Counted from the first letter of the stretch, positions 1 to 35,051 are shown. The stretch: 64,000 nt of DNA from Patescibacteria group bacterium (GCA_034658815.1 JAYEFY010000030.1:3337-67336), one strand, 5' to 3'. The notes: generated from the sequence alone by a model not told the origin. Translations and numbers: made by a program.

Positions 1-819
1 AGTATTAGTTGGTATGACGCGAAAAAGAATATATTTAACAAGGCTTGGGCATTTCGAAATAAAGAATGGATTAAAATTGATGCTCCGATTCAGCCGGATA
101 TGATATTTGATAAAACCGCGGGAAAGTACGACTACGAATTGTATGATGCAAAACAAAGGGCTTCCAGAAATGTGTTGTTTTTTAATCATCCAACGTTCAA
201 AACTTTATTAAGCAGCAAGCTTTCCCAGTACCTTATCTTTGAAGAATTTATGGCAAAGTCTTTTATTGCGGAAAGTGCTGCTGAGCTTGTAAATGTTTGT
301 AAAGAAATTTCAAGTGAAACAGTTGTCGTTAAGCCACTGCATGGTTCAGGAGGGGAAGGTATTGTTATTGGCAAAAAAAGAGAAATTGATCTGAATAGTT
401 TAAAATACCCGGTACTCATTCAGGAATTCATAAAAAACATAAATGGGGTGCCCGGATTTTCCAAAAAAAACACAATAGCCGATCTTCGCTTAGTATACAT
501 TGATTCAAAGCGTATTTATGCCGTATCAAGAACAGCGAAAGCCGGATCTTTTTTCACGAATTTTCATCAAGGAGCAACCGGGAAATCGGTTCCCGAGCAT
601 TTTATACCTGAAAGCGCTGATAAGATGGCTCAAAAAATAGTGCGAAAGCTTTCAATATTTTCAGATACCTACTATTCATTGGATTTTATTTTCAATGAGA
701 ATGATAAGCCGATTTTAGTTGAAATTAATACAACCCCGGGACTTGATTTGCTCTACGCAATCGGTGATAAGAAAGCATGGGAACGAAATTTTGATGCTTT
801 TTTGACTATTCTTAAATAG
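1..819 (+). CDS. ATP-grasp family ligase (RimK/GshB-like), probably 5'-partial
   Basis: ORF 100..819. It carries the ATP-grasp motif VVVKPLHGSGGEGIVIG and LVEINTTPGL. The frame is open back to position 1 with no stop, and a 239 aa protein is short for an ATP-grasp enzyme, so the N-terminus probably lies upstream of the window. Confidence 0.5.
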   Translation, partial: SISWYDAKKNIFNKAWAFRNKEWIKIDAPIQPDMIFDKTAGKYDYELYDAKQRASRNVLFFNHPTFKTLLSSKLSQYLIFEEFMAKSFIAESAAELVNVCKEISSETVVVKPLHGSGGEGIVIGKKREIDLNSLKYPVLIQEFIKNINGVPGFSKKNTIADLRLVYIDSKRIYAVSRTAKAGSFFTNFHQGATGKSVPEHFIPESADKMAQKIVRKLSIFSDTYYSLDFIFNENDKPILVEINTTPGLDLLYAIGDKKAWERNFDAFLTILK

Positions 820-847
820 TCATAAAGTTAAAAGCTAATTTGCGTTT

Positions 848-2302
848 ATGAAAACTTCGGTTGAAAAAATTTCCTCGATTACTGACGTAAAAAAAATATT
901 AGCTGAGCACAATGTCAAAATATATGGAATTGGCGGACTTCCGACTACCAGAAGTGAAATTTGGCCGCTTATAGATGATTTCGAATTGATATGCGCGAAC
1001 AAAACAGGGGAATTCGAATCGGTTGCGCGAAAAGTAAAAATAAAATATTTTCAATTTTCGAAAACAAAGTTTGTAAAAAAACCGGATAAGATCTTATCGG
1101 ATAAGAAGGTCATTCGATACATAAAGGAAGGATCAAAAGGCAAAAAAGTCGGGATCTATGTCTTAAGGCCAACAGAAAAAATACACGAAATATGCAATAA
1201 AAACGGCTGGACATTGATCGCAAATTCTGAAAAATTATATAACAAACTGGAAGACAGATTGGAATTTTTTAAGATCTTAAAGAAAATCGGTCTTGACAAA
1301 GAATTTTGTGTTTTAAAATTATCAAAATTTGAGAAAAAAATTGACTCGTTGCTTAAAAAATTTGGAAATAAAATCGTAGTCCAGTTTTTGAGTGGAGGAG
1401 GAGGTATCGGTACTTTTTTTATAACCGGTAATGAGGATAAAAGAACCGTTATTGATGAAATTAGAAAACGCATAGAAATCGCGAAAAATACAGACAAGAA
1501 TCCGAAATTGATCGTAAGTAAATTTATTGAGGGCTCATCAGTCAGTGTCAGTGGATGCGTAACAAAAGACAATGGAATCTTAACTACCCATGCTCAATAT
1601 CAGCTTATTGATATCAACGAGTCCGTAAAGGGAAAAGATGACGCGCAGGGTGTTTTTTGCGGCAATGATTGGGAATATTCAAATAGAATTTCTTACTCGG
1701 TGCACAATGAGGCGGAAAAGATAACGAAAAAAGTCGGGAAGGAAATAAAAAAAAGAGGGTATCTCGGAATATTCGGTATTGATTTTATGTTGGACAAGGA
1801 AAGGAAGAAGCTGGTACCCATTGAGTTGAATCCGCGATTACTGGGAACGCTTCCGGTAATTGTTTATGTACAGCTTGATAAAAAAGAGGTGCCAATTGTT
1901 GCTTTTCATCTGCTGGAATTTCTTAAAATTCCGTACTCAATAAAAAATAAAAGTGTTTATAAAAAAGATCGCAAGCGCGCGGGAACACATCTGATAATTT
2001 TCAATCCGCTAAAGCGCAAGATCAGGTTCAAAAAAGATATTCCAGGCGGTGTTTATAAAATAAGCAACGGCAGTCTGATATTTGTTCGTAAAGGAGTGGA
2101 AATGGAAGATCTAAGGAGAGACAACGAATTTATTTTGACTGATGGTGTGCCGGTGAAAGGTTTTTCGTACAGTAAGAACAGGAAAATTTTAAGGATAATC
2201 ACGAAAAGATCAATTGCGACAAATGGCGGCGGAGCGCTGAATAAGCGGGGAAGGAACATTGCCGAAAAAACAATTGAGTATATAAAGAATAATGCCATCT
2301 AA
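848..2302 (+). CDS. ATP-grasp domain protein (PurK/CPSase-like nucleotide-binding fold) with C-terminal extension
   Basis: Motifs KIVVQFLSGGGGIGTFFI and IELNPRLLG. Tightly spaced with the neighbouring ATP-grasp genes. Confidence 0.5.
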   Translation: MKTSVEKISSITDVKKILAEHNVKIYGIGGLPTTRSEIWPLIDDFELICANKTGEFESVARKVKIKYFQFSKTKFVKKPDKILSDKKVIRYIKEGSKGKKVGIYVLRPTEKIHEICNKNGWTLIANSEKLYNKLEDRLEFFKILKKIGLDKEFCVLKLSKFEKKIDSLLKKFGNKIVVQFLSGGGGIGTFFITGNEDKRTVIDEIRKRIEIAKNTDKNPKLIVSKFIEGSSVSVSGCVTKDNGILTTHAQYQLIDINESVKGKDDAQGVFCGNDWEYSNRISYSVHNEAEKITKKVGKEIKKRGYLGIFGIDFMLDKERKKLVPIELNPRLLGTLPVIVYVQLDKKEVPIVAFHLLEFLKIPYSIKNKSVYKKDRKRAGTHLIIFNPLKRKIRFKKDIPGGVYKISNGSLIFVRKGVEMEDLRRDNEFILTDGVPVKGFSYSKNRKILRIITKRSIATNGGGALNKRGRNIAEKTIEYIKNNAI

Positions 2303-3317
2303 GCACATGAAAAAAATTGATCCCAAACTGAACAAATATATCAAAGCACTGGGCAGAATGTCAGAAAAAGAATTAATAATTCGCATGATCAAGCTGGGCG
2401 CTGACATAGAACTTGTTTCAAAAAAGAACCAGCTTTTAAAAATAAAACACAAGGGCAAGAAGAAATACATGATCCTTAATAGATTTTATTTTAACACTAT
2501 TTCAAGCATTATACTCACTAAAAACAAAGAACTCACTAAGATAATATTGGAAGATAATAATTTTAGTATCCCAAGAGGAATAACCGCAAGTGATTTTACA
2601 AACGCAAAAAGAAAGATCAAAGACAACGGTATTGAGTTCCCATTGGTCATAAAGCCGCTTGACGGGATTAAATCGAAAGGTGTGTTCATGAACATTGAAA
2701 ATTTTGCCCGGCTTCAAAGATCGATCGTGGAACTCAGAAACAAGTTCATCGGAAAACAGGACAGCTTTATCGTGGAAGAGGTCGTGCCAGGGAATAATTT
2801 TAGAATTTCAGTGCTGAATGGAAAAATGATCGCGTGCGCGCAAAGAATTCCTGCTCATATTGTCGGAGATGGAAAAATGACAATTAGAGCTCTTATAGAA
2901 AAACACAATAAGCGCGCGGTTAAAACTGTCGGTATTTTTAAAATTCGCATAGATAAGGAAGTCCGTGAAAAATCAAAGCTTGAAAAATTAAGCATGGACT
3001 CTGTGCCGGAAAAAAACAGATTAGTTATATTTAGAGATATTGCCAGTATGGCAACTGGCGGCACGGCGATTGATAAAACAGGTAAAGTCAGCCCGTTTTT
3101 TAAAGAAATTGTTGAAAGCGCCGCAAATATTTTTGGTTTGAATCGAGCCGGTATTGATCTGATAACGGAAGACATTTCTTCAAATGACCCGAAGGCAAAA
3201 TACGCTATCATTGAACTGAACAGTGATCCGGGGATAATGTTTCATGGAAAGCCGGTAATAATCGGAAGAGGCGTGGATGTCGTGAAGAAAACTTTTTTAG
3301 CGTATATGAATTGTTAA
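2292..3317 (+). CDS. cyanophycin-synthetase-like ATP-grasp ligase (standalone CphA N-domain homolog)
   Basis: Matches remembered CphA N-terminal ATP-grasp blocks: FSIPRG, PLVIKPLDGxxxxGV, VLNGKMIACAQRIPAHIVGDG, ATGGTAID, GLNRAGIDLITEDIS and IIELNSDPG. It lacks the C-terminal Mur-ligase-like half. Overlaps the upstream gene by 11 nt. Confidence 0.6.
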   Translation: MPSKHMKKIDPKLNKYIKALGRMSEKELIIRMIKLGADIELVSKKNQLLKIKHKGKKKYMILNRFYFNTISSIILTKNKELTKIILEDNNFSIPRGITASDFTNAKRKIKDNGIEFPLVIKPLDGIKSKGVFMNIENFARLQRSIVELRNKFIGKQDSFIVEEVVPGNNFRISVLNGKMIACAQRIPAHIVGDGKMTIRALIEKHNKRAVKTVGIFKIRIDKEVREKSKLEKLSMDSVPEKNRLVIFRDIASMATGGTAIDKTGKVSPFFKEIVESAANIFGLNRAGIDLITEDISSNDPKAKYAIIELNSDPGIMFHGKPVIIGRGVDVVKKTFLAYMNC

Positions 3318-3412
3318 GAATTGATTAAATATTCAACAAAGATCGATAGAAAGAAGAAATAAATTGTCGGATCTTCCGTAAAATAAAGCAAGGATGAATA
3401 ACCAAAAGAAAA

Positions 3413-6094
3413 ATGATTGACATTAAGATAAAAATAGCCATACTGTTGATTGTCATTTATTTTCTTGGCAAGCTGATTATAATTAATGAACTTGGCATGA
3501 AAAAGAAAAAAACGAGTAGATCAACGCTGAAGAAAAGCACATTATTGAAATCCAAAAGACCGAAAAAGTTGAAAAAATATAAAAAGTTGAAACTTTTTTT
3601 GATCATTGTTGGAATATCCATGGTCATAGGTATCTTCGGAGTTGTTGGATTATTCATATATTACGCAAAAGATCTTCCTGATCCTGAGAAAGTAAACAGG
3701 CGGGTAATTGCCGAATCGACTAAAATATTTGATAGAACCGGCGAGCATCTTCTTTATGAGATCCATGGCGAGGAAAAAAGAACTATTATTCCGATAGAAG
3801 AAATTCCAGGCACAGTCAGATACGCGACAATTGTTCTTGAAGATCAGATGTTCTATTCACACCACGGGATTGATTTTCGCGGAATTTTACGTGCCGTTAT
3901 GAAAGATGTGCTAAAACGCGAGGCCAGCCAGGGAGGCTCGACTATTACCCAGCAATTCATAAAAAACTCAATTCTCACATCCGAAAAAAAGCTTTCAAGA
4001 AAGATCAAAGAAGTAATACTGGCAATCGAAATTGAGCAGAAATTTGGAAAGGATGACATTTTAAGGATGTACTTGAATGAAATTCCTTACGGTTCAAATG
4101 CCTATGGAATCGAAGCGGCCGCGCAGACATTTTTTGGAGTTCACGCAAAAGAATTAACACTGGTGCAATCAGCGCTTCTGGCATCTCTCCCAAAGGCTCC
4201 AACCTACTATTCTCCCCATGGCTCGCACATAGACAGGCTTCTGTCAAGATGGCGGCACACGCTTGATCAAATGGCTAACCTTGGATATATAACGAAGGAA
4301 CAGGCCGAGGATGCCAAAAACGAAGATATTTTAGCGCAGGTGAAAACATTTAAGGCTGATATAAAAGCGCCTCATTTTGTTCTTTACGTGAAAGAAAAAT
4401 TAGTTGAAGAGTTCGGAGAGGATAAAATTGAAAAGCAGGGACTGAAAGTCATCACCACGCTCGACTGGGATATGCAGCAGCTTGGCGAAAAAGTTATACG
4501 GGAAGGTGTTGAAGAAAACGGAGGCAGGTATGGATTTTCAAACTCTGCTCTAGTGGCTATAAATCCAAAGAACGGACAAGTCCTGGCCATGGTCGGTTCA
4601 AAAGATTATTTTAATGAATCAATTGACGGCAATGTCAATGTTGCCATTCGTCTTCGCCAACCGGGATCATCGTTTAAGCCATATGTTTATGCCCAAGCGT
4701 TTCGCGAGGGCTATCGGCCCGAAACCGTGCTTTTTGATGTTGAAACGGAATTTTCAACGAGTAGCGAGAACAAATACAAGCCTCAAAATTATGATGGATC
4801 ATTTCACGGGCCGGTCAAAATGAAAAACGCGCTGGCAAGGTCGTTGAATATTCCGGCAGTAAAAACACTATATCTTGCCGGTGTAAAAGATTCGATAAAA
4901 CTTGCCAAAGCAATGGGCATTACCTCATTGGATCATCCAAGCAGATATGGATTGGCGCTTGTTCTTGGCGGCGGTGAAGTAAAACTTATTGACCATGTGG
5001 CCGCGTTTTCCGTATTTGCGAATGAAGGGATAAAACATGACCAAAGAGTCATTTTAAAGATTGAGGATAATAATGGCAATATTCTGAATGACTATTCAAA
5101 GTCTGAAGGAAAGCGCGTTCTGGAACAAGAAGTCGCGCTTCAAATTTGTAGTATTTTATCAGATAACAAACTTCGTTCTCCGGCATTTGGCGCGAATAAC
5201 GTGCTGGTTATTCCGGGCAAGACAGTAATGGGCAAGACCGGAACGACAAATGAGTATCGTGACGGATGGCTTGTTGGTTCGTCGCCGTCACTGGCCGCGG
5301 GCGTATGGTCGGGAAATAATGACAATACCGCGATGAAAGCCGGAGCTGCCGGTGTAAATGTCTCCGGACCGACATGGCATAAATTTATGGAGGAAGCGCT
5401 GAAAAACTATCAAGATGAAAAATTTGCCAAGCCGAAGAAACTTGAAAAAACGGACAAACCGGTTCTTGATGGAACGATGAAAATTGTGGATAAGGTGAAG
5501 GTTTGCAAATATAATGATGGAAAATATTGTCTTGCTAATAGCAAATGTCCTGAAAAGAAGGTGAAAAAGAAGAAATATTTTGTCGCGCACAATATTTTGC
5601 ATTATATCGACAAGAATGATCCGCTTGGCGACCAGCCAAAACGTCCAAAAGATGACCCGCAATACAAAAAATGGGAAAGGGCGGTTGAAAGGTGGGGAGA
5701 AAAAAAAGCTGATGGAAAAGGCCGTGATCCCGTGCCTCAAGAAGAATGCAAGGCAAAATATTTCTCTTCTGATTTTTCAAACGTGAAAATTGCTTTTCCA
5801 ACGGATGGAGAGATCATCAATAACCAAATAATAAATATTGAGGCCAGCATTTTTGGTGACGCGAAAATTAAGCAAGTTGACTTTTTTTTCGACGGGGACA
5901 ATATTGGATCGAGAACAAAAACACCATATGAGATAAGCTACACGATCCCTGAATCAAAGAATTATGGAACTTCAATAATAAGGGTAAAAATATACAATGA
6001 AGAAGGCGGCAGTGACGAAGATGAAGTTGAAATTGCCATTGAAATCCCGGACAGCGAATTCAGCGCGGTTTACTCGGCTAATAAGTGGGTGTGA
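3413..6094 (+). CDS. mrcA: penicillin-binding protein 1A (bifunctional transglycosylase/transpeptidase) with Lys/Cys-rich C-terminal extension
   Basis: GT51 motifs EDQMFYSHHGID and RxxxxQGGSTITQQ. Transpeptidase SSFKP (SxxK). One N-terminal TM helix. An alternative start lies at M(3497) MKKKKTSRS. Confidence 0.85.
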   Translation: MIDIKIKIAILLIVIYFLGKLIIINELGMKKKKTSRSTLKKSTLLKSKRPKKLKKYKKLKLFLIIVGISMVIGIFGVVGLFIYYAKDLPDPEKVNRRVIAESTKIFDRTGEHLLYEIHGEEKRTIIPIEEIPGTVRYATIVLEDQMFYSHHGIDFRGILRAVMKDVLKREASQGGSTITQQFIKNSILTSEKKLSRKIKEVILAIEIEQKFGKDDILRMYLNEIPYGSNAYGIEAAAQTFFGVHAKELTLVQSALLASLPKAPTYYSPHGSHIDRLLSRWRHTLDQMANLGYITKEQAEDAKNEDILAQVKTFKADIKAPHFVLYVKEKLVEEFGEDKIEKQGLKVITTLDWDMQQLGEKVIREGVEENGGRYGFSNSALVAINPKNGQVLAMVGSKDYFNESIDGNVNVAIRLRQPGSSFKPYVYAQAFREGYRPETVLFDVETEFSTSSENKYKPQNYDGSFHGPVKMKNALARSLNIPAVKTLYLAGVKDSIKLAKAMGITSLDHPSRYGLALVLGGGEVKLIDHVAAFSVFANEGIKHDQRVILKIEDNNGNILNDYSKSEGKRVLEQEVALQICSILSDNKLRSPAFGANNVLVIPGKTVMGKTGTTNEYRDGWLVGSSPSLAAGVWSGNNDNTAMKAGAAGVNVSGPTWHKFMEEALKNYQDEKFAKPKKLEKTDKPVLDGTMKIVDKVKVCKYNDGKYCLANSKCPEKKVKKKKYFVAHNILHYIDKNDPLGDQPKRPKDDPQYKKWERAVERWGEKKADGKGRDPVPQEECKAKYFSSDFSNVKIAFPTDGEIINNQIINIEASIFGDAKIKQVDFFFDGDNIGSRTKTPYEISYTIPESKNYGTSIIRVKIYNEEGGSDEDEVEIAIEIPDSEFSAVYSANKWV

Positions 6095-6453: not shown

Positions 6454-7143
6454 ATGCCCTACAAAATAAAAAATTATCTGTCAAAATTCATTCTTCATGT
6501 GAATCAGCGAGTTTTTTATTACACGTTTCTTTATTGGTTAAGACATTTGTTTCGAACTGACGTTCTGCATATTAATGAGCTCACAAAGAGACTTGATCGT
6601 CCGATTGTGGTCGTTTCAAACCATATTTCGAGATGGGATCCGTTTCTAATTCTCTCATCAATGCGCAGGAGCTTTTATTTTAGAAATTTAGTGTGGCGAA
6701 TTCCGGCTTACCACGGATTTTTCGGAAGACTGAAGTATATTCATTTTCAAATGCTTTTTTTATTTTTAGGTGTTTATCCGATAGGAGGAAAAGGAAGTAT
6801 AGAAAAAAAGCTTGAAAACACAATCAATTTACTTAAAAACGGCCATAGCACGGTTTTTTTCCCTGAAGGAAAAAGGGCGGTTGCCGGAGAAAAGACGAAA
6901 CCCAAAAATGGGATCGGGTATGTGATCAGTCATCAAGATGTATATATCTTGCCGGTTAACGTCCAATACTCAAAAAGAAAACAATGCGGGCTGGGGATAA
7001 AGATCAACAGCAAAGCCCGAGTGGTATTCGGCAAAATTTACAAATCTGAATATTTTCGAGAAAAATATGATGAAAATGCAATATACCATGGTGTTATGGG
7101 ATCGGTTTTTGAATTGGAGAATACACTTAGGCCGACTTCATGA
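6454..7143 (+). CDS. plsC: 1-acyl-sn-glycerol-3-phosphate acyltransferase
   Basis: The HxxxxD acyltransferase motif (VVSNHISRWDP) and FPEGKR block. Confidence 0.75.
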   Translation: MPYKIKNYLSKFILHVNQRVFYYTFLYWLRHLFRTDVLHINELTKRLDRPIVVVSNHISRWDPFLILSSMRRSFYFRNLVWRIPAYHGFFGRLKYIHFQMLFLFLGVYPIGGKGSIEKKLENTINLLKNGHSTVFFPEGKRAVAGEKTKPKNGIGYVISHQDVYILPVNVQYSKRKQCGLGIKINSKARVVFGKIYKSEYFREKYDENAIYHGVMGSVFELENTLRPTS

Positions 7144-7241
7144 AAGTAGAATAGAATATTACACGATTAGATTGTTTGAGATTAAATAATTGGTTGGAGT
7201 AAAATTTAGCAGCAGGCACATAAACTATGTAAGACATAAAT

Positions 7242-8165
7242 ATGCAAAAAGAATATTTTGTAAAAGAAAAAAAGTGTCCCATTTTATTCCTCTTTTTTCT
7301 TCACTTGGTTTCTTTTTGGGCATTGGTAAAATATATTGTTTTACATTTTTTATTTAAGCTAGATACGAAGAAAATAAGAGGAAAGTTTTATGGAAGTTTG
7401 TGGGTAGATCGTTTCAGTTCGTTTAATAGGGGGATAAGATTAAATGCGACAAATTGGAAAGCTCTTGATTCTTTATATAATTACCAAGAAAAAATGAAAG
7501 GATGCGGACTTGTAGAAAGATTCTTTAGTGGCTTTTGGACTAATATGGAAAATTTTCATGCTATAAATAATAGAGCGGAAAAGGTAACAATGATAATAAA
7601 GAAAGAGCTTCAAAAAAATTTTAATAGACAAGAAGTCGGAGAGATCAATGTACTTTCGATAGCTTCAGGCTCCGCGCAGCCATTATTAGAAGCTATAAGA
7701 TCTTTTAGTAGCAAACAACAACAAAGAATAAATTTGACACTTTTAGATTTAGACAAGTCAGCTCTTGATAATAGCAAGGCTTTGTTTGCGGAGTTTAAAA
7801 TAAAAAGCAATCTAAAAACAATAAAAGACTCTGCTCATAACCTAGAAAAATTATTTAATAAAAGAAATTTTGATATAATTGAAATGGTGGGTTTTCTGGA
7901 TTATAGACCAAAATTACGAGCAATTTGCTTAATAAAAAAAATCAAAAAATTAATGAAAAAGCAAGGGATTTTTTTAACGTGCAATATTTATCCTAATAAG
8001 GAAAAATATTTTTTAGACTGGGTGCTACTTTGGCCAATGATTTATAGAAAAAAAGAATTTAAGGAAATATTATTAAAAAGCGGGTTCAAAGATAAGAATA
8101 TTAAAATAATATTTACTCAGTTTACAATACACCAATTGGCTATTTGCTATAACAGAAATAAATAA
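7242..8165 (+). CDS. class I SAM-dependent methyltransferase-like protein with N-terminal TM segment
   Basis: Motif I-like VLSIASGSAQ, acidic LLDLD and FDIIEMVGFLDY. Confidence 0.4.
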   Translation: MQKEYFVKEKKCPILFLFFLHLVSFWALVKYIVLHFLFKLDTKKIRGKFYGSLWVDRFSSFNRGIRLNATNWKALDSLYNYQEKMKGCGLVERFFSGFWTNMENFHAINNRAEKVTMIIKKELQKNFNRQEVGEINVLSIASGSAQPLLEAIRSFSSKQQQRINLTLLDLDKSALDNSKALFAEFKIKSNLKTIKDSAHNLEKLFNKRNFDIIEMVGFLDYRPKLRAICLIKKIKKLMKKQGIFLTCNIYPNKEKYFLDWVLLWPMIYRKKEFKEILLKSGFKDKNIKIIFTQFTIHQLAICYNRNK

Positions 8166-8172
8166 GCTTCGT

Positions 8173-10383
8173 ATGCAGTATATTTTTGCAATTTCAGGGC
8201 TAATAAATGCTATAGCTGCAATATTTTTCAGTTCCCTTATTGTTATTAAAAATAAAAAGGGTGCTGTCAACAAATTATGTCTTTCACTCACTGTAGCAAC
8301 GGCTTTTTGGTCGTTTTTTTACTGGCGATGGCTCTTGGTTTACAATGATGAGCAGAACGCCTTATTTTTTGTTAGACTTTTATCAATTGGTTCCACATTC
8401 TTACCAATAATATTTTTTCATTGGATCCTGACCCTGCTTGAAATAAAAAGAAAGAAAGTATTGATTTTCTATTACTTCCTTACTTTTTTTTACAGCCTAT
8501 TTTTTTTCTCAGATTTATTTATAAAAGGAGTTGAGCCAAAACTAGCTTTTTCTTTTTGGCCAGTTCCAGGTCCAATTTATGATTGTTACTTGATTACTCA
8601 TTACGGAGTTTTACTCTTTTACGCTTTTATTCTTTTGATAAAAGGCTATAAAAAATTCAGTGGGATCAAAAAATTGCAAATAAGATACGTACTGCTTGGT
8701 TCTGTGCTTGGGTTTGGGGGCGGAGCAACAAATTTTTTTCTATGGTATGATATTTCAATACCTCCATTTGGAAACTTTTTTGTTGTCTGCTACATTTTTT
8801 CATTTACCTACGCAATCATTCAACATAGGTTTATGAGTATTCGATTATTGATGAGTAAGGTTTACGTGACACTCATTATTTCCATATGCGCCTATATTTT
8901 ATTTCAAGCGTTTATATATCTCTACTTTCTTTTCATTTCCTTGCATTTGGGACAGATTCAGGTAATCACAATTGAATTTTTTATTGCGTTTATCGTAGCT
9001 GTTTTACTCATTCCATTCTTGAACTATATTCAAAAGTCAAGCGACTATCTTTTTTTTCGAAAAGGCAATCCGTCAACAATGATAAAAAACGTTTCATTGA
9101 AATTGAGTAGTGCCATTGACATGAAACAGCTCTTGTTTCTTTTGAATGCGGAATTCAAGAAAATAATCGGCACCGAGTTTATTTCAATTATTTATACAAC
9201 CCGAAAAACAAGTAGAAGGGCGAGAAAACAAGAACTTATCACGTTCAAAAAAAATGTTCTGAAAACAGTGCCAATAGACAAAGAAAGCAGCCTAATAAAT
9301 TATTTGCTTAAAGGAAGGAAAGTATTTGTTATTGATGAAATTAATGATAGTAATAGTAAGAGTGATATGGAACTTCTCTGGGAACTTAAAAGATATAACG
9401 CGCACATTATTGCTCCGATCGAATCACGCGGAAAGATTATGGGAGCAATTATTTTTGGGCCTAAAATGACTCGGAATGCCTACACGAAAGAAGATATTGA
9501 ATTCATTGAAATAGTGAGTTTTCAAGCGGGAACCACCATTGAAAGCGCGTATTTATATCAGGAAATTAAAAATTTTAATATTCATTTAAAGCGGGAAATT
9601 AAGAAAGCGACAACAGACCTGAAAGCCGCTAATAAGAAACTTATTATTGCATACGAAAAGTTGCACAAGCTTGATCGTGCGAAGTCAGAATTTCTTTCCA
9701 TTGCATCGCATCAATTACGTACGCCGCTTACTTCAATAAAAGGATTTACTTCACTTTTACTTGAAGGCTCATATGGAAAAATCTCAAAAGAAGTAAAGGA
9801 AGTCCTTGAAAAGATATTTTTATCAAATGAACGGCTTGTTCAATTAGTGGAAGATCTGCTTAACATCTCTCGCATTGAATCAGGCAGATTTGTCCTTGAA
9901 CTGAAAAAAAATAATATTTCCAATCTTCTTAAAGGTATTGTCGATTCTTTCGTAATATCGGCTAAATCGAAAAATATTTCGCTTAAATTAATACTTCCAA
10001 AGAAAAAAATCAGAGACTTTTATTTTGACAGCGGCAAGATTCAAGAGGTCATCTCGAATTTTATTGATAACGCGTTAAAATACTCCCAAAGCGGAACCAT
10101 AGCCATTGAGGCGAAAAATATGAAAGATGTAGTTAGAATAGCTGTAACTGACAATGGGCGCGGAATTCTAAATGACGAACTCAGGTACATTTTTGAGAAA
10201 TTCCAGCGCGGTAAAGACGTAAATCAAATTCACACTGAAGGAATTGGACTGGGACTGTATGTCTGCAAAGTAGTCATTAAAGCGCATAAGGGTAAAATTT
10301 GGGCTGAATCAAGGGGCGCCGGGAAAGGCAGTACATTTTTATTCGAACTGAAAAAAGGACTAAAACCAAAAGATATAAAATAA
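8173..10383 (+). CDS. membrane sensor histidine kinase (multi-TM N-domain, GAF-like, HisKA, HATPase)
   Basis: About 7 N-terminal TM helices. H-box SEFLSIASHQLRTPLTSIKG. N/G boxes NALKYS, DNGRGI and GIGLGL. Confidence 0.8.
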   Translation: MQYIFAISGLINAIAAIFFSSLIVIKNKKGAVNKLCLSLTVATAFWSFFYWRWLLVYNDEQNALFFVRLLSIGSTFLPIIFFHWILTLLEIKRKKVLIFYYFLTFFYSLFFFSDLFIKGVEPKLAFSFWPVPGPIYDCYLITHYGVLLFYAFILLIKGYKKFSGIKKLQIRYVLLGSVLGFGGGATNFFLWYDISIPPFGNFFVVCYIFSFTYAIIQHRFMSIRLLMSKVYVTLIISICAYILFQAFIYLYFLFISLHLGQIQVITIEFFIAFIVAVLLIPFLNYIQKSSDYLFFRKGNPSTMIKNVSLKLSSAIDMKQLLFLLNAEFKKIIGTEFISIIYTTRKTSRRARKQELITFKKNVLKTVPIDKESSLINYLLKGRKVFVIDEINDSNSKSDMELLWELKRYNAHIIAPIESRGKIMGAIIFGPKMTRNAYTKEDIEFIEIVSFQAGTTIESAYLYQEIKNFNIHLKREIKKATTDLKAANKKLIIAYEKLHKLDRAKSEFLSIASHQLRTPLTSIKGFTSLLLEGSYGKISKEVKEVLEKIFLSNERLVQLVEDLLNISRIESGRFVLELKKNNISNLLKGIVDSFVISAKSKNISLKLILPKKKIRDFYFDSGKIQEVISNFIDNALKYSQSGTIAIEAKNMKDVVRIAVTDNGRGILNDELRYIFEKFQRGKDVNQIHTEGIGLGLYVCKVVIKAHKGKIWAESRGAGKGSTFLFELKKGLKPKDIK

Positions 10384-14690: not shown

Positions 14691-16757
14691 ATGAAAAAAA
14701 TATTCGAACCTAAAACGATTGCTATTGTCGGAGCCTCATCATTAAAGGGAAAGATCGGGAATATATTAATGAAGAATCTTCAGCAGAATAATTCTCTGAA
14801 ATTGTATCCTGTTAATATCAAAAGGCCGCGAGTAATGGGAATTAAAGCGTATCCATCCGTTATGGATATTAAAAATAAAGTCGACATAGCGATCATAGCG
14901 GTACCGGCCATGTTTGTTGGGAAGATCGTAGAAGAATGCGCGTGTTGCACGCACCCGATACAAAATATTATTATTATTTCCGCCGGATTTTCTGAGATTG
15001 GAGAGAAAGGCAGGGAACGGGAAAAAAAGATCATAAAATTAGCCGATAAATACAAGCTTAATATTATCGGTCCGAATTGTCTTGGAGTGGTTAATACTCA
15101 CTATGGGCTTAACGCGTCTTTTGCAAAACGCGATATTCCGAAAGGAAAGATCGGTTTTATCGCGCAATCAGGAGCGCTTACGACAGCTCTTTTTGATTTG
15201 CTTAAGGAACACGGGCTGGGGTTTTCACTTGTTGCGACACTTGGCAATAAAGCTAATGTTGATGAGAATGATTTTATTGAATTTTTTGCCAGTGACCCGG
15301 AAACTAAAATTATCGCGCTTTACCTTGAGGATATTACCGACGGAAAACGTTTTGCGGCCATTATTAACAAAATATCACGCAGAAAACCGATTGTCATTAT
15401 TAAGGCCGGCTCATCCAAAAAAGCTCAGCTGGCGATTCAATCGCACACCGGCGCAATGGCTGGAAATGCCGATATTATTCAAGAAGTCATTAAAGATAAC
15501 GGAGGGATAATTTGCAATAATCTTCCCGATTTTGTCGGAATACTAAAATTGTTAAATGGCTTTAAGCGTCCTTTGAACAAAAACACTGTTTTTATTACCA
15601 ATGCGGGAGGACCGGGTGTCATAGCAACGGATCTTACGGAAAGCCGGGAAGACGTGTCGCTTTACACTTTTTCAGAAAAAGAGAAGAATGCGTTAAAAAA
15701 ATATCTTCCGGCTGAAAGTTCCGTTGAAAATCCTGTTGATGTGCTCGGTGACGCGATGGAGGACAGATACAAAAACATCTTTCATGAATGCGCCAAATTC
15801 AAAAAGATCGGATCAGTTTGCGTGATCGTTACTCCACAAGCGCAAACACCAATTAGCCGCATTGCAAGCGAAATTAGCGCTGCAAATAGGAAATACAATA
15901 TTCCTTTTGTGCCAATCGTTATTGGCGGGGAAGCGTATCATCAGGCAACATCAGTATTGAACAAGTACGGCCATAGCTCTTTTATTTTCCCTTATCAAGC
16001 AATTCGATCATTATCCAAATATATAAAATACGCGGATGACATTAAAAGAGATAAAAAGATCATTATAAAAGAATTGCCGGCTAGATCCGGCGGCTTGATA
16101 GAAAAATTAAAAAAAGAACGGAGAGCAGTGCTTTTATATGACGAAGCTCGCTCAATCGGCGAAGAATACAAACTCAACATTCTGTCCGCGAAAATTATTA
16201 GCGGCAAAGACGATGTAAAAAAAATAAACAGCGGATTTCCATTGGTGGCAAAAGTTGATAGTCCGAACATTCTTCATAAAAATGCCAAGGGCGGCCTGTC
16301 CTTGAATATATTGAATAGCAGGGAATTGATAAGAGAGTTTGATCGCTTGAAAAAACTTTTTAAAGATGATCAAGTTATTGTGCAAAAGCAGGTAGAACAA
16401 GGGCTGGAACTTATTATTGGCATAAAAAAAGATTCAGTATTTGGCCATATTTTGATGCTGGGTCTCGGAGGAGTGTTTACTGAAGCCCTTAATGTCAAGT
16501 GTTTATGGCTTCTTCCCGTAAGCCAAAAACAAATCGTCGAAAAAATTAGAAACTCTCCGCTCGCGAAAATAATCCATAAAAAGAAGATCAACATTTCAAG
16601 AATAGCGAAAGAAGCTGAAAAAGTTGGGAAAATTGTGCAAAAGCATGCCTATATCAACGAACTTGACGTGAATCCGATCATGATGTATCCGGACAAAAAA
16701 CCGGTCATTGTGGACATTAAAATTATTGTTGATATTAAGGGACTGCTATCAAACTAA
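14691..16757 (+). CDS. acetyl-CoA synthetase (ADP-forming), fused alpha/beta (NDP-forming acyl-CoA synthetase)
   Basis: N-terminal CoA-binding domain (IAIVGAS..). Succinyl-CoA-synthetase-like flavodoxin domain. C-terminal ATP-grasp. 688 aa. Confidence 0.8.
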   Translation: MKKIFEPKTIAIVGASSLKGKIGNILMKNLQQNNSLKLYPVNIKRPRVMGIKAYPSVMDIKNKVDIAIIAVPAMFVGKIVEECACCTHPIQNIIIISAGFSEIGEKGREREKKIIKLADKYKLNIIGPNCLGVVNTHYGLNASFAKRDIPKGKIGFIAQSGALTTALFDLLKEHGLGFSLVATLGNKANVDENDFIEFFASDPETKIIALYLEDITDGKRFAAIINKISRRKPIVIIKAGSSKKAQLAIQSHTGAMAGNADIIQEVIKDNGGIICNNLPDFVGILKLLNGFKRPLNKNTVFITNAGGPGVIATDLTESREDVSLYTFSEKEKNALKKYLPAESSVENPVDVLGDAMEDRYKNIFHECAKFKKIGSVCVIVTPQAQTPISRIASEISAANRKYNIPFVPIVIGGEAYHQATSVLNKYGHSSFIFPYQAIRSLSKYIKYADDIKRDKKIIIKELPARSGGLIEKLKKERRAVLLYDEARSIGEEYKLNILSAKIISGKDDVKKINSGFPLVAKVDSPNILHKNAKGGLSLNILNSRELIREFDRLKKLFKDDQVIVQKQVEQGLELIIGIKKDSVFGHILMLGLGGVFTEALNVKCLWLLPVSQKQIVEKIRNSPLAKIIHKKKINISRIAKEAEKVGKIVQKHAYINELDVNPIMMYPDKKPVIVDIKIIVDIKGLLSN

Positions 16758-16795: not shown

Positions 16796-17362
16796 ATGGA
16801 ATCTAAAAAAAATAAAATACTTCTTGTTGATGACGATGAAGATATCCGTACGATGTATGCAAACTTGCTGCGCGAAAATAGTTTTGAGGTGATTGAAGCA
16901 AAGGACGGAGTTGAGGGGCTTGATTTGGCGGCAAGCAGTGAAGGAGTCGATCTTATTTTTACTGGGATCATAATGCCGAGAATGGACGGGTTTCAATTGA
17001 TCCAATCGTTAAAAGAATACACAAGCACCGCTAACATCCCGGTAATTGTGAGTTCTCATTTGGGAAGGGAAGAAGATCGAAAGCATATGGATAAACTCGG
17101 GGTAAAAGATTTTATTGTTCAGGGAATGACAACGCCTGCCGAAGTCATCAAGCGTATTTTACAGGCAATCAGGCACGGAGAGTATGATCTTGGAATAAAT
17201 CCTCTTGAATTTGACGGGCAGCGTTTCATTGAGGACTATAATTTTTCTCCGGAAATGAAATGCGAGAACTGTGGAAGCGAATTGGCGCTTAATATAAAAT
17301 ATTATAACGATAAAGTTTTTAAAGCTTACGTCCATTGTCCGAATTGCCAAAGAAAATATTAA
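16796..17362 (+). CDS. response-regulator receiver protein with C-terminal C4 zinc-ribbon
   Basis: REC domain (ILLVDDDED, phospho-acceptor Asp context, KxxG). The C-terminus CENCGSE..CPNCQRKY replaces a DNA-binding output domain. Confidence 0.7.
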   Translation: MESKKNKILLVDDDEDIRTMYANLLRENSFEVIEAKDGVEGLDLAASSEGVDLIFTGIIMPRMDGFQLIQSLKEYTSTANIPVIVSSHLGREEDRKHMDKLGVKDFIVQGMTTPAEVIKRILQAIRHGEYDLGINPLEFDGQRFIEDYNFSPEMKCENCGSELALNIKYYNDKVFKAYVHCPNCQRKY

Positions 17363-31962: not shown

Positions 31963-32155
31963 GTTAGAAATTAGAGCGTTATTTACAATATTGCCACTCT
32001 TTTGTCATCCCGAACGAAATGAGTGAAGTATGAACGAATGAAGTCGAGGGATCACTTCGCGTAAATAAGTTCACGACCAAGGGATTCTTCATCCCGAGTA
32101 CTCGGGACTCAGAATGACAAGGATGAAAGTGTAAACAACGCTAGAGTTTCTTACA
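31963..32155 (+). repeat. palindromic MITE-like repeat element, copy A (expanded, about 193 bp)
   Basis: Imperfect terminal inverted repeats gttagaaattagagcgttatttaca / tgtaaacaacgctagagtttcttac. Internal palindrome cccgagtactcggg. It has an about 88-bp extra segment relative to copy B. Confidence 0.6.
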
Positions 32156-32166
32156 AATTTAGGGCA

Positions 32167-32706
32167 ATGAACAACCAAGTAAAAAAACAGAAGATAGGTG
32201 GTGGTACAAAGTTTTTAATGGCAGTTTTGATTTTATACGCGGTTATGGCCTTGTCTAATTTTCAATTTGCGTCTGAAGCTTTTTTAAGTTTTTTGCGTAT
32301 GTTAGTCCGTATCACCCCGATATTAATTGTAGTATTTTTTATTATAGCAGGAGTCAACTTTTACTTCACTCCCCAAAAAGTTAAGAAATATCTGGGACAT
32401 GGTTCCGGCTTCAAAGGATGGCTGTACGCTGTTATTTCCGGAATTTTAGTTTCCGGTCCGCCGTATATATTATTTCCGCTTTTAGGAGAACTAAAAGAAC
32501 GCGGAATGAAAAATTCTCTGCTGGCTGTGTTTCTATACAATAGAAATGTAAAAATACCATTTTTGCCGGTAATGGTATTTTATTTTGGCTTAAGTTTCAC
32601 TGTTGCCGTTTCCGTATTTATAATTTTCTTTTCTATTTTGAACGGCTTGTTGTTAGGATGGTGGGTAGCGGACAATCAAAAAATTTATAACAAAGAAGCC
32701 AAGTAG
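32167..32706 (+). CDS. predicted permease, C-terminal half
   Basis: A polytopic membrane protein that starts 12 nt after the repeat end. Confidence 0.45.
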   Translation: MNNQVKKQKIGGGTKFLMAVLILYAVMALSNFQFASEAFLSFLRMLVRITPILIVVFFIIAGVNFYFTPQKVKKYLGHGSGFKGWLYAVISGILVSGPPYILFPLLGELKERGMKNSLLAVFLYNRNVKIPFLPVMVFYFGLSFTVAVSVFIIFFSILNGLLLGWWVADNQKIYNKEAK

Positions 32707-32716
32707 CCGTTTCTGC

Positions 32717-33850
32717 TTAGCTCCTATTTTTTTTTATACTCAAACCCCAGCTTTCTCTGGCAAGCTCGCGGGTTTTTTCTATCTCTTTTTTTTCGGGTAA
32801 GGGAAGTGTTTCCATCACTTTCTTGAGTTGAGTTTGATTAAGTTTCACGACCGTGTCCCACAAGTCTTTTTTCTCAAGAATTTCTTTGAGCTTGTCCTCG
32901 TTGTAAGCAAAGGTTTGGCGGTGTGTTTTCGCGACAATTTTGTTCTCTCCGAACAGCCGTTCGACATTTTCTTGCTCCATGATCTCAAGAATTTTTTGCT
33001 GAAGTTCGGCGGCTTTCCTTCGTTCGCTTTTCGCGTTTTCTTGCGCTTTTAAATACTCTTCAATAATTTTCTTTTGCTGTCTGTCATCAAACGTTTCTTC
33101 TTTGAATTTGTGTTTCCACATAGGGCAAATTTTTTGGTGTTCACACCAACCGCACAAAGGACTCATGATGGCAGGGAAGTCCGAATTCTTGATTTGATGA
33201 ATAATTTCCATGACTTCCTTTCGTCCTTTTTGAAGTTCTTCTGTTGTTTTGGTTGAGCTTAATTTTGCTGAATGTCGCAGGAAATACAATGATAAGCTAA
33301 TATTGCCAAGACCGCTTTCTTCTTTTGGATAGCGCTTCAAAAAAGCCAGAAGATAGATCAATAATTGCAAGTTGTCATCAATTGACTTTTGCGGAGGCAT
33401 TTTTTTTGAAGTCTTATAATCAATGATCTCATATCCTTTATCTGTTTTATCGATTCGATCAATAATACCGGAAATAAAATGTTTTTCTTTTGATTCGCTA
33501 TCTTCAAGTTCAATGACGAACCGTGACTCAAGATCAACAATTTTTGCCATGGCCGGGTCATTTTTTTGGTAGTATAGCTGGATAATGTTAATTCCTTGCG
33601 CGAAGGCTGACCGTTCATTTATCTCATCATCGAAAACATCAGGATTCCAATGGGTCGAAAAGTGATTTAGAGCCTCTTTGAGCGATGGATTGGTAAATCC
33701 TCCGCTATGGATAAACTTCATCGTATCATGGATAAGTGTTCCAAATACGGCTTCGGGAGATTTTTTGGTTTTGATCCTGTCGACTACCTGGAATTTATAT
33801 TTTAGCGGGCATGTTTTAAATGTATTGAGCGCGGAGAAAGAAGTATTCAT
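32717..33850 (-). CDS. PD-(D/E)xK nuclease, Cas4/RecB-like with 4-Cys Fe-S motif (standalone)
   Basis: N-terminus TCPLKYKF. Nuclease motifs GIIDRID..EIIDYKTSK. C-terminus CGWCEHQKIC. No neighbouring cas genes. Confidence 0.7.
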   Translation of the reverse strand: MNTSFSALNTFKTCPLKYKFQVVDRIKTKKSPEAVFGTLIHDTMKFIHSGGFTNPSLKEALNHFSTHWNPDVFDDEINERSAFAQGINIIQLYYQKNDPAMAKIVDLESRFVIELEDSESKEKHFISGIIDRIDKTDKGYEIIDYKTSKKMPPQKSIDDNLQLLIYLLAFLKRYPKEESGLGNISLSLYFLRHSAKLSSTKTTEELQKGRKEVMEIIHQIKNSDFPAIMSPLCGWCEHQKICPMWKHKFKEETFDDRQQKKIIEEYLKAQENAKSERRKAAELQQKILEIMEQENVERLFGENKIVAKTHRQTFAYNEDKLKEILEKKDLWDTVVKLNQTQLKKVMETLPLPEKKEIEKTRELARESWGLSIKKNRS

Positions 33851-33912
33851 GGAGTAGTTTAAAATTTACAATTTTTTTAAGCTCGAAAGGGAAGCAGTGC
33901 GACAATATGGTG

Positions 33913-34509
33913 TTATTGCTTTTTTATGTTAATGACAACGCCATATAGTTTTATATCATCATAACACAGCCATCCCATATCACGCGAGTCAAAAGAGTTG
34001 TTTTGATTGTCTCCCAAAACCCAATAGCAGCCGTTTTTATCGATTTCATACAATCTCTTAGTATAGGGACTGTTACCAAGCTAACTCCTACCAAAAATTG
34101 TTAATTTTACCCACAGCTTTGAAAAAAATTATTGCCTATGCTAATGCATAACCAAAAATTTTATTTCTTCTCTGTGAATAAAATTTCCTAGTCCCGAGTA
34201 CTCGGGACTAACGCCTGCCTGCCGGTAGGCAGGGAGCTAGCTCGGAAACAATCCCTGGAGAATTTCATCAGAAGAGACGTTCGGGCAGGTTAGGCAGGAA
34301 AAAACGATAATATCACCCGGTTTCGGCTCTTGTTTCGGATCCACGGTTAATTCGTCACCGTCAGACAAGGTTGGCTCCATTGAGTTGCCGGTTCCCAGAA
34401 AAACATCATATCGATCTGAAGGCAAAAAATAAAAGCCGACTACCAGAAAAGTTACGGCAATAATGAATACAACCAAATAAAATCCTTTTGAAAGTTCTCC
34501 TTCTCTCAT
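33913..34509 (-). pseudogene. lepB: signal peptidase I (LepB/S26) pseudogene with decayed, stop-containing middle section
   Basis: N-fragment 34237..34509 has TM plus GNSMEPTL (Ser box) and GDIIVF. C-fragment 33913..34080 has YWVLGDNQNNSFDSRDMGW (box D/E). Both are in the same frame. They are separated by 156 nt carrying 4 in-frame stops and two perfect palindromes. Confidence 0.55.
34189..34233. repeat. repeat-family core palindrome (tagtcccgagta|ctcgggacta) plus second hairpin (cctgcct-gccggt-aggcagg), copy D
   Basis: A 22-bp perfect palindrome sharing the cccgagtactcggg core with copies A and B. It sits inside the lepB pseudogene. Confidence 0.45.
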
Positions 34510-34793
34510 ATATTTGTAAAGACAGGGAGGGCAGGCGGGGTATAGTTATGATTAGCCATAAAATAACATAAAGAGGCGCTAGAGAGGATAAACACACAAC
34601 GTCGCACAATGTATATTATGCGACTCAACATTCTTTTCTACTGCATCATTCATCATTCCCGGTATTCTATTTGCATTTGCCCTGCGCGCTTTCTTTCTTT
34701 ATTACTATGTTCAGAAAATAAGCAATTAGCATTCAGTAGCGGCTAACTGTGGCAATTGATTGATGTCCAGTGCTACCTACCTACCAGTGGGTT

Positions 34794-35051
34794 TTACTCA
34801 ACCTGGTAATTTTCAACTTGATCTTGCTGAATTTTATTTAGATTAGCTTCAAACTGTTTCATTTGGTTGTTTACTTGATCCTCAATCTGTTTTACTTGAT
34901 CCTCAGCTTGTTTTTTTGTTTCAACCGCAGTCCGGTAGCGGTTTGAATAATAAGTACCCGCTAAAACCATAATTATTGCCAAAACAAGCAATAAAATAAT
35001 CAGAGCAAACCCATTTTGATTTTTGTCTTTTGTAAATTTAGAAGTTCTCAT
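34794..35051 (-). CDS. small membrane-anchored coiled-coil protein
   Basis: One TM helix followed by a Q/E/K-rich helical tail. Confidence 0.3.
   Translation of the reverse strand: MRTSKFTKDKNQNGFALIILLLVLAIIMVLAGTYYSNRYRTAVETKKQAEDQVKQIEDQVNNQMKQFEANLNKIQQDQVENYQVE

Follow-up and report, generated by a model that had tools for sequence, protein, structure and literature searches.

ATP-grasp ligase genes beside PBP1A in a Patescibacteria group bacterium: probable cargo of a larger, Rlo-related gene cassette

Introduction

What do three consecutive ATP-grasp ligases do next to a gene for peptidoglycan synthesis, and do they form a unit of their own? This question is raised by a 64,000-nucleotide stretch of DNA from a Patescibacteria group bacterium (GCA_034658815.1, JAYEFY010000030.1:3337-67336; hereafter called the window). 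The window is AT-rich (GC ~0.35-0.42), and its bases 1-6094 hold four co-directional genes on the + strand, namely the open reading frames (ORFs) ORF1, ORF2 and ORF3, which encode the ligases, and an ORF of 893 amino acids (aa) for the penicillin-binding protein PBP1A. A preliminary description of the sequence had regarded ORF3 as a standalone homolog of the "N-domain" of cyanophycin synthetase (CphA). It had proposed that the three ligases together build or modify a peptide or poly-amino acid, possibly a cyanophycin-like one, and had called the arrangement unusual. Building or modifying a peptide is still the most reasonable general reading. Our analysis indicates, with a probability that we put at about 60%, that the three genes are not a self-contained triad but the variable "cargo" tail of a larger cassette that is conserved in Patescibacteria. 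This estimate covers the cassette together with the membrane-associated module that we propose for it below.

Results

A conserved gene core upstream of the ligase genes in related loci

Gene neighbourhoods were collected from look-ups of ORF3 homologs, followed by a scan of GTDB species genomes with a 5-sequence alignment, and the genes were labelled by phmmer. Families were called using Pfam gathering cut-offs and the curated cut-offs of NCBIfam. Structures were predicted with AF2 and compared with the PDB using Foldseek. A recurrent gene order was found: a ~220-aa seven-transmembrane (7TM) protein of family PF14402, a ~460-aa fusion of an ATPgrasp_ST ligase with a C-terminal retropepsin domain, a set of variable genes, a ~330-aa ligase resembling the G domain of CphA (G-like), and PBP1A. 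The 7TM and fusion genes were located upstream of the standalone G-like gene, either directly or past a few cargo genes, in 21/21 distinct loci of Patescibacteria whose upstream flank was long enough (Moraniibacteriota, Saccharibacteria, Dojkabacteria/WS6). Outside Patescibacteria they were found beside standalone G-like genes in none of 12 loci (Nostoc, Alkalibacterium, Halomonas, Methanosarcinales, Nanoarchaeota).

The closest relative of the window, locus L001 (81% identity in ORF3), carries in this order the 7TM gene, the fusion gene, ORF1, ORF2, ORF3, PBP1A, an acyltransferase and a methyltransferase, and from ORF1 on the order in the window is identical. The 7TM protein of L001 (L001:1203-1892, 229 aa) scored 97.7 bits with PF14402 and 76.6 bits with the RloB model NF052267 (cut-off 900), where the match covers only positions 298-507 of 508. 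It has no transglutaminase part, such that the periplasmic inactive transglutaminase domain of RloB is missing. The fusion proteins of L001 and L003 reached 279.2 and 282.6 bits with TIGR02291 (cut-off 314.2) over nearly the whole model, and ~230 bits with PF14397. Their retropepsin domain scored 31.9-40.4 bits with PF05618 and matched the RloA1-3 models weakly; the catalytic DTG is kept in at least 90% of the fusions. Since the domain lies C-terminal to the ligase and no signal peptide is present, it is presumably not secreted. Among 5,019 matches of the fusion protein the best 120 were all at least 60% identical. This high conservation within the lineage suggests that the protein probably matters to the biology of organisms with few genes to spare.

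For the window itself, the core genes appear to lie just left of base 1 on the same contig, as judged from the gene order in L001 and from protein P0248. This protein is 92% identical to the L001 fusion, and its longest contig measures 69,966 bp, as do those of the window's own proteins P0001 and P0046. The ORF3 and ORF2 products are identical to NCBI proteins of a Patescibacteria group bacterium on a contig of this length. The preliminary description, which began at base 1, had missed this putative core of an RloB-like 7TM protein and an RloC-like ATP-grasp/retropepsin fusion. In locus L088 the 7TM protein is longer (L088:4963-6486, 507 aa) and has N-terminal PKD domains where the transglutaminase-like domain would be. 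A role of the cassette as a defence system was considered and rejected: the PADLOC anti-phage models gave no match at E<=1e-3 to ORF1-3 or to the 7TM and fusion proteins of L001.

ORF3 and the cyanophycin question

The best NCBIfam match of ORF3 was cyanophycin synthetase (TIGR02068, 203.4 bits, cut-off 850), confined to model positions 209-462 of 862; the CphA1 model NF010623 gave 202.3 bits (cut-off 877). The next-best families were the ATP-grasp module of GshF (152.9 bits, cut-off 425) and N-acetylglutaminylglutamine synthetase (Ngg; 131.1 bits, cut-off 569), while the scores for the RimK family (45.6 bits, cut-off 143.4) and for D-alanine--D-alanine ligase (Ddl; 32.5 bits, cut-off 243) were far lower. 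The preliminary description had proposed this subfamily comparison as the test of its CphA assignment, which held, since CphA scored far above both RimK and Ddl. In the PDB, the sequence of ORF3 matched CphA1 (7wac/7lg5) with E ~1e-41 (7wac 2.6e-41) at ~29-30% identity. The AF2 model of ORF3, with a predicted local distance difference test (pLDDT) score of 90, gave Foldseek template modelling (TM) scores of 0.77-0.82 to TeCphA1 (7wac/7wae; ~325 columns at 0.82), 0.75 to GshF (3ln6), 0.74 to CphA2 and ~0.5 to RimK and Ddl (Ddl ~0.45-0.48).

The G domain of TeCphA1 comprises residues 162-487 (PMC9427784), and it is this part that ORF3 matches. ORF3 is thus a standalone ATP-grasp half without the Mur-ligase half, as had been described, but it corresponds to the G domain and not to what the literature calls the N domain. 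A Pfam scan gave no match to the N domain (PF18921), the N-terminal anchor for the polymer, in ORF3, whose protein record P0001 carries only PF08443/PF02655. Residue 72 of ORF3 aligns with CphA residue 213, such that the protein starts approximately at the G-domain boundary. At the other end it stops where the G domain ends. A homolog of the Mur-ligase-like M domain, which attaches Arg and forms the C-terminal part of CphA for which the preliminary description had suggested a search, was not found among the ORFs of the window, where phmmer with two full-length CphA1 sequences matched ORF3 alone. ORF3 does not resemble CphA2 in composition either, which combines a G domain with a truncated inactive M domain in ~620-720 aa; ORF3 has 336 aa and no M remnant.

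We then compared single residues in an alignment of 126 G-type domains from related loci, using the roles established for TeCphA1 (PMC9427784) and its numbering. The residues for ATP, Mg and the acyl-phosphate (K220, K261, R309, D431, E450, N452) are invariant in the alignment, ORF3 included, from which ORF3 is predicted to be a catalytically active ligase. At the positions for recognition of cyanophycin and aspartate, 5/6 residues are replaced: ORF3 has I/K/S/A/M at E215/H267/N394/S396/R458, and R323 alone is kept. Full-length CphA1 proteins in the same alignment almost always keep R323, N394, S396 and R458, with E/D/S at 215 and H/Q/K at 267. In a neighbour-joining tree the ORF3 type formed a clade of its own outside the CphA1/CphA2 clade and apart from CphA2-like sequences. 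Given the missing N and M domains, the replaced recognition residues and the separate clade, ORF3 is very probably not a cyanophycin enzyme.

Some relatives of ORF3 have other architectures. Five giant proteins (P0101, P0103, P0107, P0111, P0119) of 770-2400 aa combine two or three tandem G-like ATP-grasp domains with an acylphosphatase domain, which is C-terminal in 4/5 and internal in P0107; TPR or LPG_synthase_C domains are sometimes present. They appear to form a so far uncharacterised family of multi-ligase fusions. In Halomonas stenophila and H. maura (L036:2529-16214, L037:2413-16217), five CphA-G-like genes of 640/1218/862/465/354 aa form one co-directional 14-kb cluster, beside which phmmer labelling detected no Rlo-type neighbours.

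ORF1 and ORF2

In agreement with the preliminary description of three tandem ATP-grasp ligases, all three proteins passed a Pfam cut-off for the ATP-grasp superfamily of carboxylate-amine ligases: ORF1 with RimK (PF08443; 56.6 bits, cut-off 21), ORF2 with ATP-grasp_3 (PF02655; 51.5 bits, cut-off 23.2) and ORF3 with RimK (PF08443; 30.7 bits, cut-off 21). Their translations each contain the Mg-binding E-x-N motif (VEINTTPG, IELNPR and IELNSDPG, respectively).

ORF1 also matched GSH-S_ATP (48.1 bits) and, in the PDB, RimK (E=2.4e-7). It stayed below the cut-offs of the RimK models (TIGR00768, 51.6 bits, cut-off 143.4; the S6 ligase NF007764, 33.7 bits, cut-off 331), and reached 21.4 bits with D-alanine--D-alanine ligase (cut-offs 243-246). 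Judged by these scores, ORF1 is RimK/GshB-like at the superfamily level only. Its ortholog in L001 (L001:3298-4260) has a full length of 320 aa. A gene of the ORF1 type directly follows the fusion gene in L087, L089, L090, L059, L060 and L072. The last of these loci also carries a doubled RimK-like gene (L072:5612-7513, 633 aa); it is labelled Bdellovibrionales, while its gene content is Moranbacteria-like, and it may be misbinned. The 318-aa RimK-like gene of Saccharibacteria was tried as an ortholog of ORF1 and rejected, the two not being close (BLASTP E=0.23).

ORF2 matched the NCBIfam model PRK06524 (NF005096) across its full length with 123.3 bits and did not reach the cut-off of 684. Its AF2 model (pLDDT 94) had biotin carboxylase, PurK, PurD and BacD as top Foldseek matches in the PDB, with TM scores of only ~0.55. 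Members of the ORF2 family were found in Patescibacteria at 40-52% identity, and E326/N328/R330 are invariant across the family. A gene of the ORF2 type occurs in the same cassette in L086, L088 and L087, the contig of the latter beginning inside the fusion gene. In P0072, ORF2 is fused to a RimK-like domain.

Variable cargo across relatives

Look-ups seeded with ORF2 and with the fusion protein, i.e. independently of ORF3, led to the same cassette with other cargo. The genes between the fusion gene and PBP1A differ from locus to locus. ORF1-type RimK-like genes are frequent in this slot, which otherwise holds ORF2-type genes, G-like genes of at least two types and other RimK-like genes. Genes for DUF3541, a MATCAP-type carboxypeptidase, a YdjC deacetylase, a GT4 glycosyltransferase, a GNAT protein and a methyltransferase were found there as well. 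The exact triad of ORF1, ORF2 and ORF3 was seen in L001 only, while each type recurs elsewhere at the same cassette position in other combinations. Since L090 lacks any G-like gene, the ORF3 type is itself optional cargo. Elsewhere in the window no further cassette-type genes (MATCAP, YdjC, DUF3541, CphA M domain, further G-like genes) were found. As the ligase cargo is variable, a feature of the envelope may be under diversifying selection.

A version of the cassette without PBP1A is present in 12 loci of Saccharibacteria/Dojkabacteria (L045, L055, L057, L068, L074, L075, L077, L079, L080, L082, L083, L085; e.g. L075:6172-11939). It consists of the 7TM protein, the ligase-retropepsin fusion, a 328-aa G-like protein, a second, ~563-aa CphA-like protein and a 318-aa RimK-like protein. 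The 328-aa protein keeps the CphA aspartate-site residues R323/N394/T396/G456/R458, and the ~563-aa protein scored 239 bits with NF010623 over model positions 185-567 of 871. Surveys of metagenome-assembled genomes (MAGs) of Saccharimonadia may be counting these genes as "cyanophycin synthetase". In L082 a MATCAP-type (PF08014) carboxypeptidase adjoins the cassette (L082:12252-13415).

Linkage to PBP1A

The gene that follows ORF3 encodes a class-A PBP, as had been described: the protein scored 521.7 bits with TIGR02074 (cut-off 508.75), 203.7 bits with Transgly, 73.4 bits with Transpeptidase and 37.3 bits with Big_7. In 14 distinct Moranbacteria-type loci PBP1A was the gene directly 3' of the cassette. 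The arrangement, first taken as unusual, is therefore the normal state in this lineage. The genes past PBP1A vary, being an acyltransferase in the window, DciA-DnaN-DnaA in L003, HTH-enolase in L086 and Cpn60 in L087. That PBP1A stays adjacent while the outer flanks differ argues for more than frozen synteny. Together with the sugar-modifying genes that occupy the same variable slot in relatives, this persistent neighbour suggests that the product of the cassette probably has to do with the cell envelope or with peptidoglycan synthesis.

Gene layout and other genes of the window

The coordinates of the features are collected in Table 1. The initial ORF listing gave 100-819 for ORF1 and 2292-3317 for ORF3, and both starts were later revised. 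The frame of ORF1 is open already at base 1 and its ortholog in L001 is longer, such that ORF1 is to be regarded as a 5'-truncated gene. The most likely start of ORF3 is 2307 (MKKIDP), which agrees with the NCBI protein P0001 and its ortholog P0002; a second candidate ATG at 2292 would overlap ORF2 by 11 nucleotides (nt). With the start at 2307 the intergenic gaps amount to 28 nt (ORF1-ORF2), 4 nt (ORF2-ORF3) and 95 nt (ORF3-PBP1A). The short gaps of the preliminary description were thus confirmed and its overlap is unlikely. The gaps leave no room inside the cluster for a precursor peptide, for which a search nearby had been suggested.

Table 1. Features of the window with their coordinates.
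Feature	Position	Strand	Description
ORF1	1-819	+	3' part (272 codons) of a RimK/GshB-like ATP-grasp ligase gene, cut at the left window edge
ORF2	848-2302	+	484-aa ATP-grasp ligase of biotin-carboxylase / PurD / L-amino-acid-ligase architecture with an extra C-terminal beta domain
ORF3	2307-3317	+	336-aa standalone ATP-grasp ligase of CphA-G / GshF / Ngg type with G-omega insertion
PBP1A	3413-6094	+	893 aa; glycosyltransferase, transpeptidase and C-terminal Big_7
Histidine kinase	8173-10383		N-terminal 7TM sensor region (HisKA_7TM)
ADP-forming acetate-CoA ligase	14691-16757		Fourth ATP-grasp-fold protein of the window, metabolic
Response regulator	16796-17362		Lone response regulator
Polyprenyl synthase and undecaprenyl-diphosphate synthase	19504-21316		Gene pair; lipid carrier for wall synthesis

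No terminator-like site was detected between the four cassette/PBP1A genes of the window, including the interval 3317-3413, which makes co-transcription from ORF1 to PBP1A plausible. A separate PBP1A promoter has room, given promoter-like hexamers at 3417-3444 and another possible PBP1A start at 3497 (M29). The PBP1A ORF opens with a hydrophobic extension of 28 codons (MIDIKIKIAILLIVIYFLGKLIIINELG), followed by a second Met and a Lys-rich tail (window 3413-3497). The extension is present in L001 too, and 3497 is possible as the true start. Downstream of PBP1A, an acyltransferase (PF01553) and a methyltransferase dependent on S-adenosylmethionine follow (window 6454-8165, L001:9963-11417). This pair does not follow PBP1A in more distant cassette loci; it is possibly, but not necessarily, part of the same functional unit. 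Around 32.7 kb the long ORFs change from the + to the - strand, and the cumulative GC skew has its maximum at ~34 kb. The pattern at ~32,000-35,000 looks like a replication terminus, or else an assembly or rearrangement junction.

Discussion

A proposed membrane-associated module

The cassette would encode a membrane-associated module for building and trimming a peptide tail, related to the Rlo system of Pseudomonas and to RimK/RimB systems. The sequences show which domains are present, that catalytic residues are kept, that residues specific to cyanophycin are lost and that the gene neighbourhood is conserved; from these we infer the substrates, the order of reactions, the localisation at the membrane and the link to the envelope. 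RloA of P. aeruginosa cleaves polyglutamate. A mutant that lacks all three RloA proteases has defects in cell shape, under hypo-osmotic conditions and towards cell-wall antibiotics, and mutations in rloB or rloC suppress these defects (PMC11957051). Its authors suggest that the system is connected with peptidoglycan homeostasis (Lormand et al. 2025, PMC11957051). In our proposal the ligases would be active on the cytoplasmic side of the membrane, on or close to the 7TM protein. By analogy with RimK/RimB and RloC/RloA, the core fusion ligase would put acidic (Glu-type) residues on a carboxylate acceptor and the fused retropepsin would trim them. ORF1, ORF2 and ORF3 would each convert a carboxylate into an acyl-phosphate and attach further units, amines or amino acids, and a peptide moiety specific to the lineage would result. 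ORF3 would extend a terminal alpha-carboxylate like the CphA G domain and GshF, with an acceptor and a nucleophile that differ from those of cyanophycin synthesis.

Several observations weigh against this picture of cassette and module. The core genes lie outside the window, their placement resting on the gene order of L001 and on the 69,966-bp contig of P0248. The fusion scores just under the TIGR02291 cut-off and its retropepsin domain is cytoplasmic, unlike the secreted RloA. The G-like gene is optional, as L090 illustrates. The C-terminal tail of the 7TM protein is basic and thus no acidic acceptor of the RimK type. More generally, an acidic C-terminal acceptor on the 7TM or fusion protein was considered and rejected, as the tails are either basic or conserved without being acidic. 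Inspection of the gene maps of the cassette loci, without a dedicated small-ORF search, revealed no small precursor ORF that is conserved. The adjacency of PBP1A is confined to the Moranbacteria-type lineage and absent in the 12 Saccharibacteria/Dojkabacteria loci; it is broken in L088, and in L089 two genes intervene. Many loci moreover share an oriC-proximal frame (YebC-RuvC ... PBP1A-DciA-DnaN-DnaA), such that part of the adjacency could be inherited synteny near oriC. The link to the envelope is for these reasons only likely.

A bolder version of the proposal is that an RloB-type 7TM protein, the RloC-retropepsin fusion and swappable ATP-grasp ligases form a lineage-wide, membrane-anchored and ribosome-independent peptide-building machine in Patescibacteria, whose product sits on peptidoglycan precursors, on another lipid-linked envelope intermediate or on a PBP1A complex. 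We regard this as tentative and rather unlikely. If true, it would mean a lineage-specific cell-wall chemistry in ultrasmall bacteria and would reveal the biochemical function of the Rlo system.

Alternative explanations

The most serious competitor, although an unlikely one, is that the ligases edit UDP-MurNAc-peptide or lipid II by placing amino acids on a stem-peptide carboxylate or a side-chain amine, and that PBP1A polymerises the altered precursor. The ATP-grasp D-aspartate ligase Aslfm of Enterococcus acts in this way on a peptidoglycan precursor. The position of PBP1A immediately 3' in 14 distinct loci despite unlike outer flanks would fit such editing, as would the YdjC, GT4 and GNAT genes in the variable slot and the Rlo mutant phenotypes in cell shape and towards cell-wall antibiotics. 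Enzymes of the CphA-G/GshF type, furthermore, extend a terminal alpha-carboxylate (PMC9427784). However, the cassette contains no partner of Mur-ligase or Fem type, the Ddl-type scores are very low (32.5 bits for ORF3, cut-off 243), and Saccharibacteria/Dojkabacteria keep the core and G-like genes without PBP1A adjacency. The retropepsin and the MATCAP-type peptidases also suit the trimming of a peptide tail better than precursor synthesis. The same peptidases would be at home in RimK-type tailing, in which Glu-rich C-terminal tails are added to and trimmed from a soluble protein, e.g. ribosomal protein S6, in order to tune translation, and in which the synteny with PBP1A is coincidental. ORF1 and the core ligase are RimK-like, the latter is fused to a RimB-type retropepsin without signal peptide, as a cytoplasmic RimK/RimB pair would be, and relatives carry MATCAP-type carboxypeptidases and TTL-like matches. 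We nevertheless consider it improbable: the 7TM partner is invariably adjacent, whereas RimK/RimB systems have none (PMC11957051), every score lies well under the RimK equivalog cut-offs, and glycan-modifying cargo does not fit a ribosomal target.

Two further products were weighed. A small soluble peptide metabolite, i.e. a di- or tripeptide osmolyte or a thiol similar to N-acetylglutaminylglutamine amide (NAGGN) or glutathione, with the 7TM protein exporting or sensing it, would be in line with the families that follow CphA for ORF3 (GshF module 152.9 bits, Ngg 131.1 bits), with the resemblance of the ORF2 fold to the L-amino-acid ligases BacD/YwfE and with the tie of the Pseudomonas Rlo system to osmotic stress. 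The GshF and Ngg scores are, however, far under their cut-offs (425, 569), the cluster in the window has no GshA or GNAT partner, and both the protease fusion and the varying number of ligases speak for a polymer or tail rather than a single defined small molecule, which leaves this explanation with little probability. Least probable of all, and hardly credible, is a cyanophycin-like storage polymer with ORF3 as the Asp-adding enzyme, an option that the preliminary description had entertained. The top matches of ORF3 in sequence and fold are indeed the G domains of CphA1/CphA2, and R309 and R323 are kept, but ORF3 has no N or M domain, 64 kb hold no M-domain homolog, E215, H267, N394, S396 and R458 have become I, K, S, A and M, the clade lies outside CphA1/2, and the score is 203 bits at a cut-off of 850. 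The conserved cassette with its proposed tail-building module is the preferred explanation.

Implications

Standalone or short CphA-G-like proteins of Patescibacteria are named "cyanophycin synthetase" by annotation pipelines (e.g. in JGI names). This is an annotation trap, as proteins of at least the ORF3 type lack domains and residues that cyanophycin synthesis requires. A 2026 preprint gives counts of cyanophycin synthetase genes for Saccharimonadia MAGs, and these genes may include members of this family. A search for literature on CphA3 or cyanophycin synthetase-like proteins returned only the Aeromonas carbapenemase gene cphA3.

Every domain family in the cassette and the Rlo/Rim logic are already known. 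No published description of the Patescibacteria cassette was found in the literature searched, which did not cover the 2009 amidoligase survey considered below. No literature linking MATCAP with ATP-grasp ligases in bacteria was found, the matches listed for ATP-grasp/RimK in Patescibacteria contained no relevant paper, and the main text of a Saccharibacteria genetics paper does not mention the cassette genes. The features that distinguish the cassette, i.e. an RloB consisting of the 7TM part only, a ligase fused to a retropepsin, a cargo of exchangeable ligases (CphA-G-like and others) and the linkage to PBP1A, thus appear to be undescribed. The cassette also offers a simpler system for reconstitution.

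Comparison with known systems

With CphA1 and CphA2, ORF3 shares the ATP-grasp fold with the G-omega insertion and the residues for ATP, Mg and the acyl-phosphate. It differs from CphA1 by the missing N domain and Mur-ligase M domain, the replaced recognition residues and its separate clade. The match to GshF (GshAB) and Ngg, both of which extend a terminal alpha-carboxylate by an amino acid, also spans the N-terminal 70 residues of ORF3. Unlike these enzymes ORF3 is standalone, with neither a fused GshA nor a GNAT domain, and scores far under their cut-offs.

At the level of gene neighbourhoods, Iyer, Abhiman, Burroughs and Aravind reportedly predicted amidoligase/peptidase neighbourhoods in 2009 that use the same domain vocabulary, namely ATPgrasp_ST, 7TM_transglut, the retropepsin-like "Zn_protease" and DUF1704, the latter of which we take to be the family now named MATCAP (PF08014). 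The cassette differs from these by its arrangement, which is specific to the candidate phyla radiation (CPR), by its CphA-G-like ligases and by its linkage to PBP1A.

The closest known counterpart is RloABC of P. aeruginosa, together with the RimK/RimB pair. The cassette and RloABC both place a 7TM protein of the PF14402/RloB type beside a RimK-like ATP-grasp ligase, in the cassette probably of the TIGR02291 type, and a DTG retropepsin, there apparently of the RimB/RloA type, and in both the cell envelope is implicated, by gene linkage or by phenotype. Of the RloB matches, 96% are in Proteobacteria (PMC11957051). In contrast to RloABC, the 7TM protein of the cassette is without the periplasmic inactive transglutaminase domain (L088 has a PKD domain instead), and the retropepsin is fused to the ligase C-terminus and would thus be cytoplasmic, whereas RloA is secreted. 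The cassette furthermore holds between one and four additional ATP-grasp ligases along with other enzymes, and is followed by PBP1A. Rlo itself was first described in 2025. Its compact version in the cassette, with the protease fused to the ligase in the cytoplasm, is located beside PBP1A and glycan-modifying genes, which is independent comparative support for the hypothesis of that paper on peptidoglycan homeostasis.

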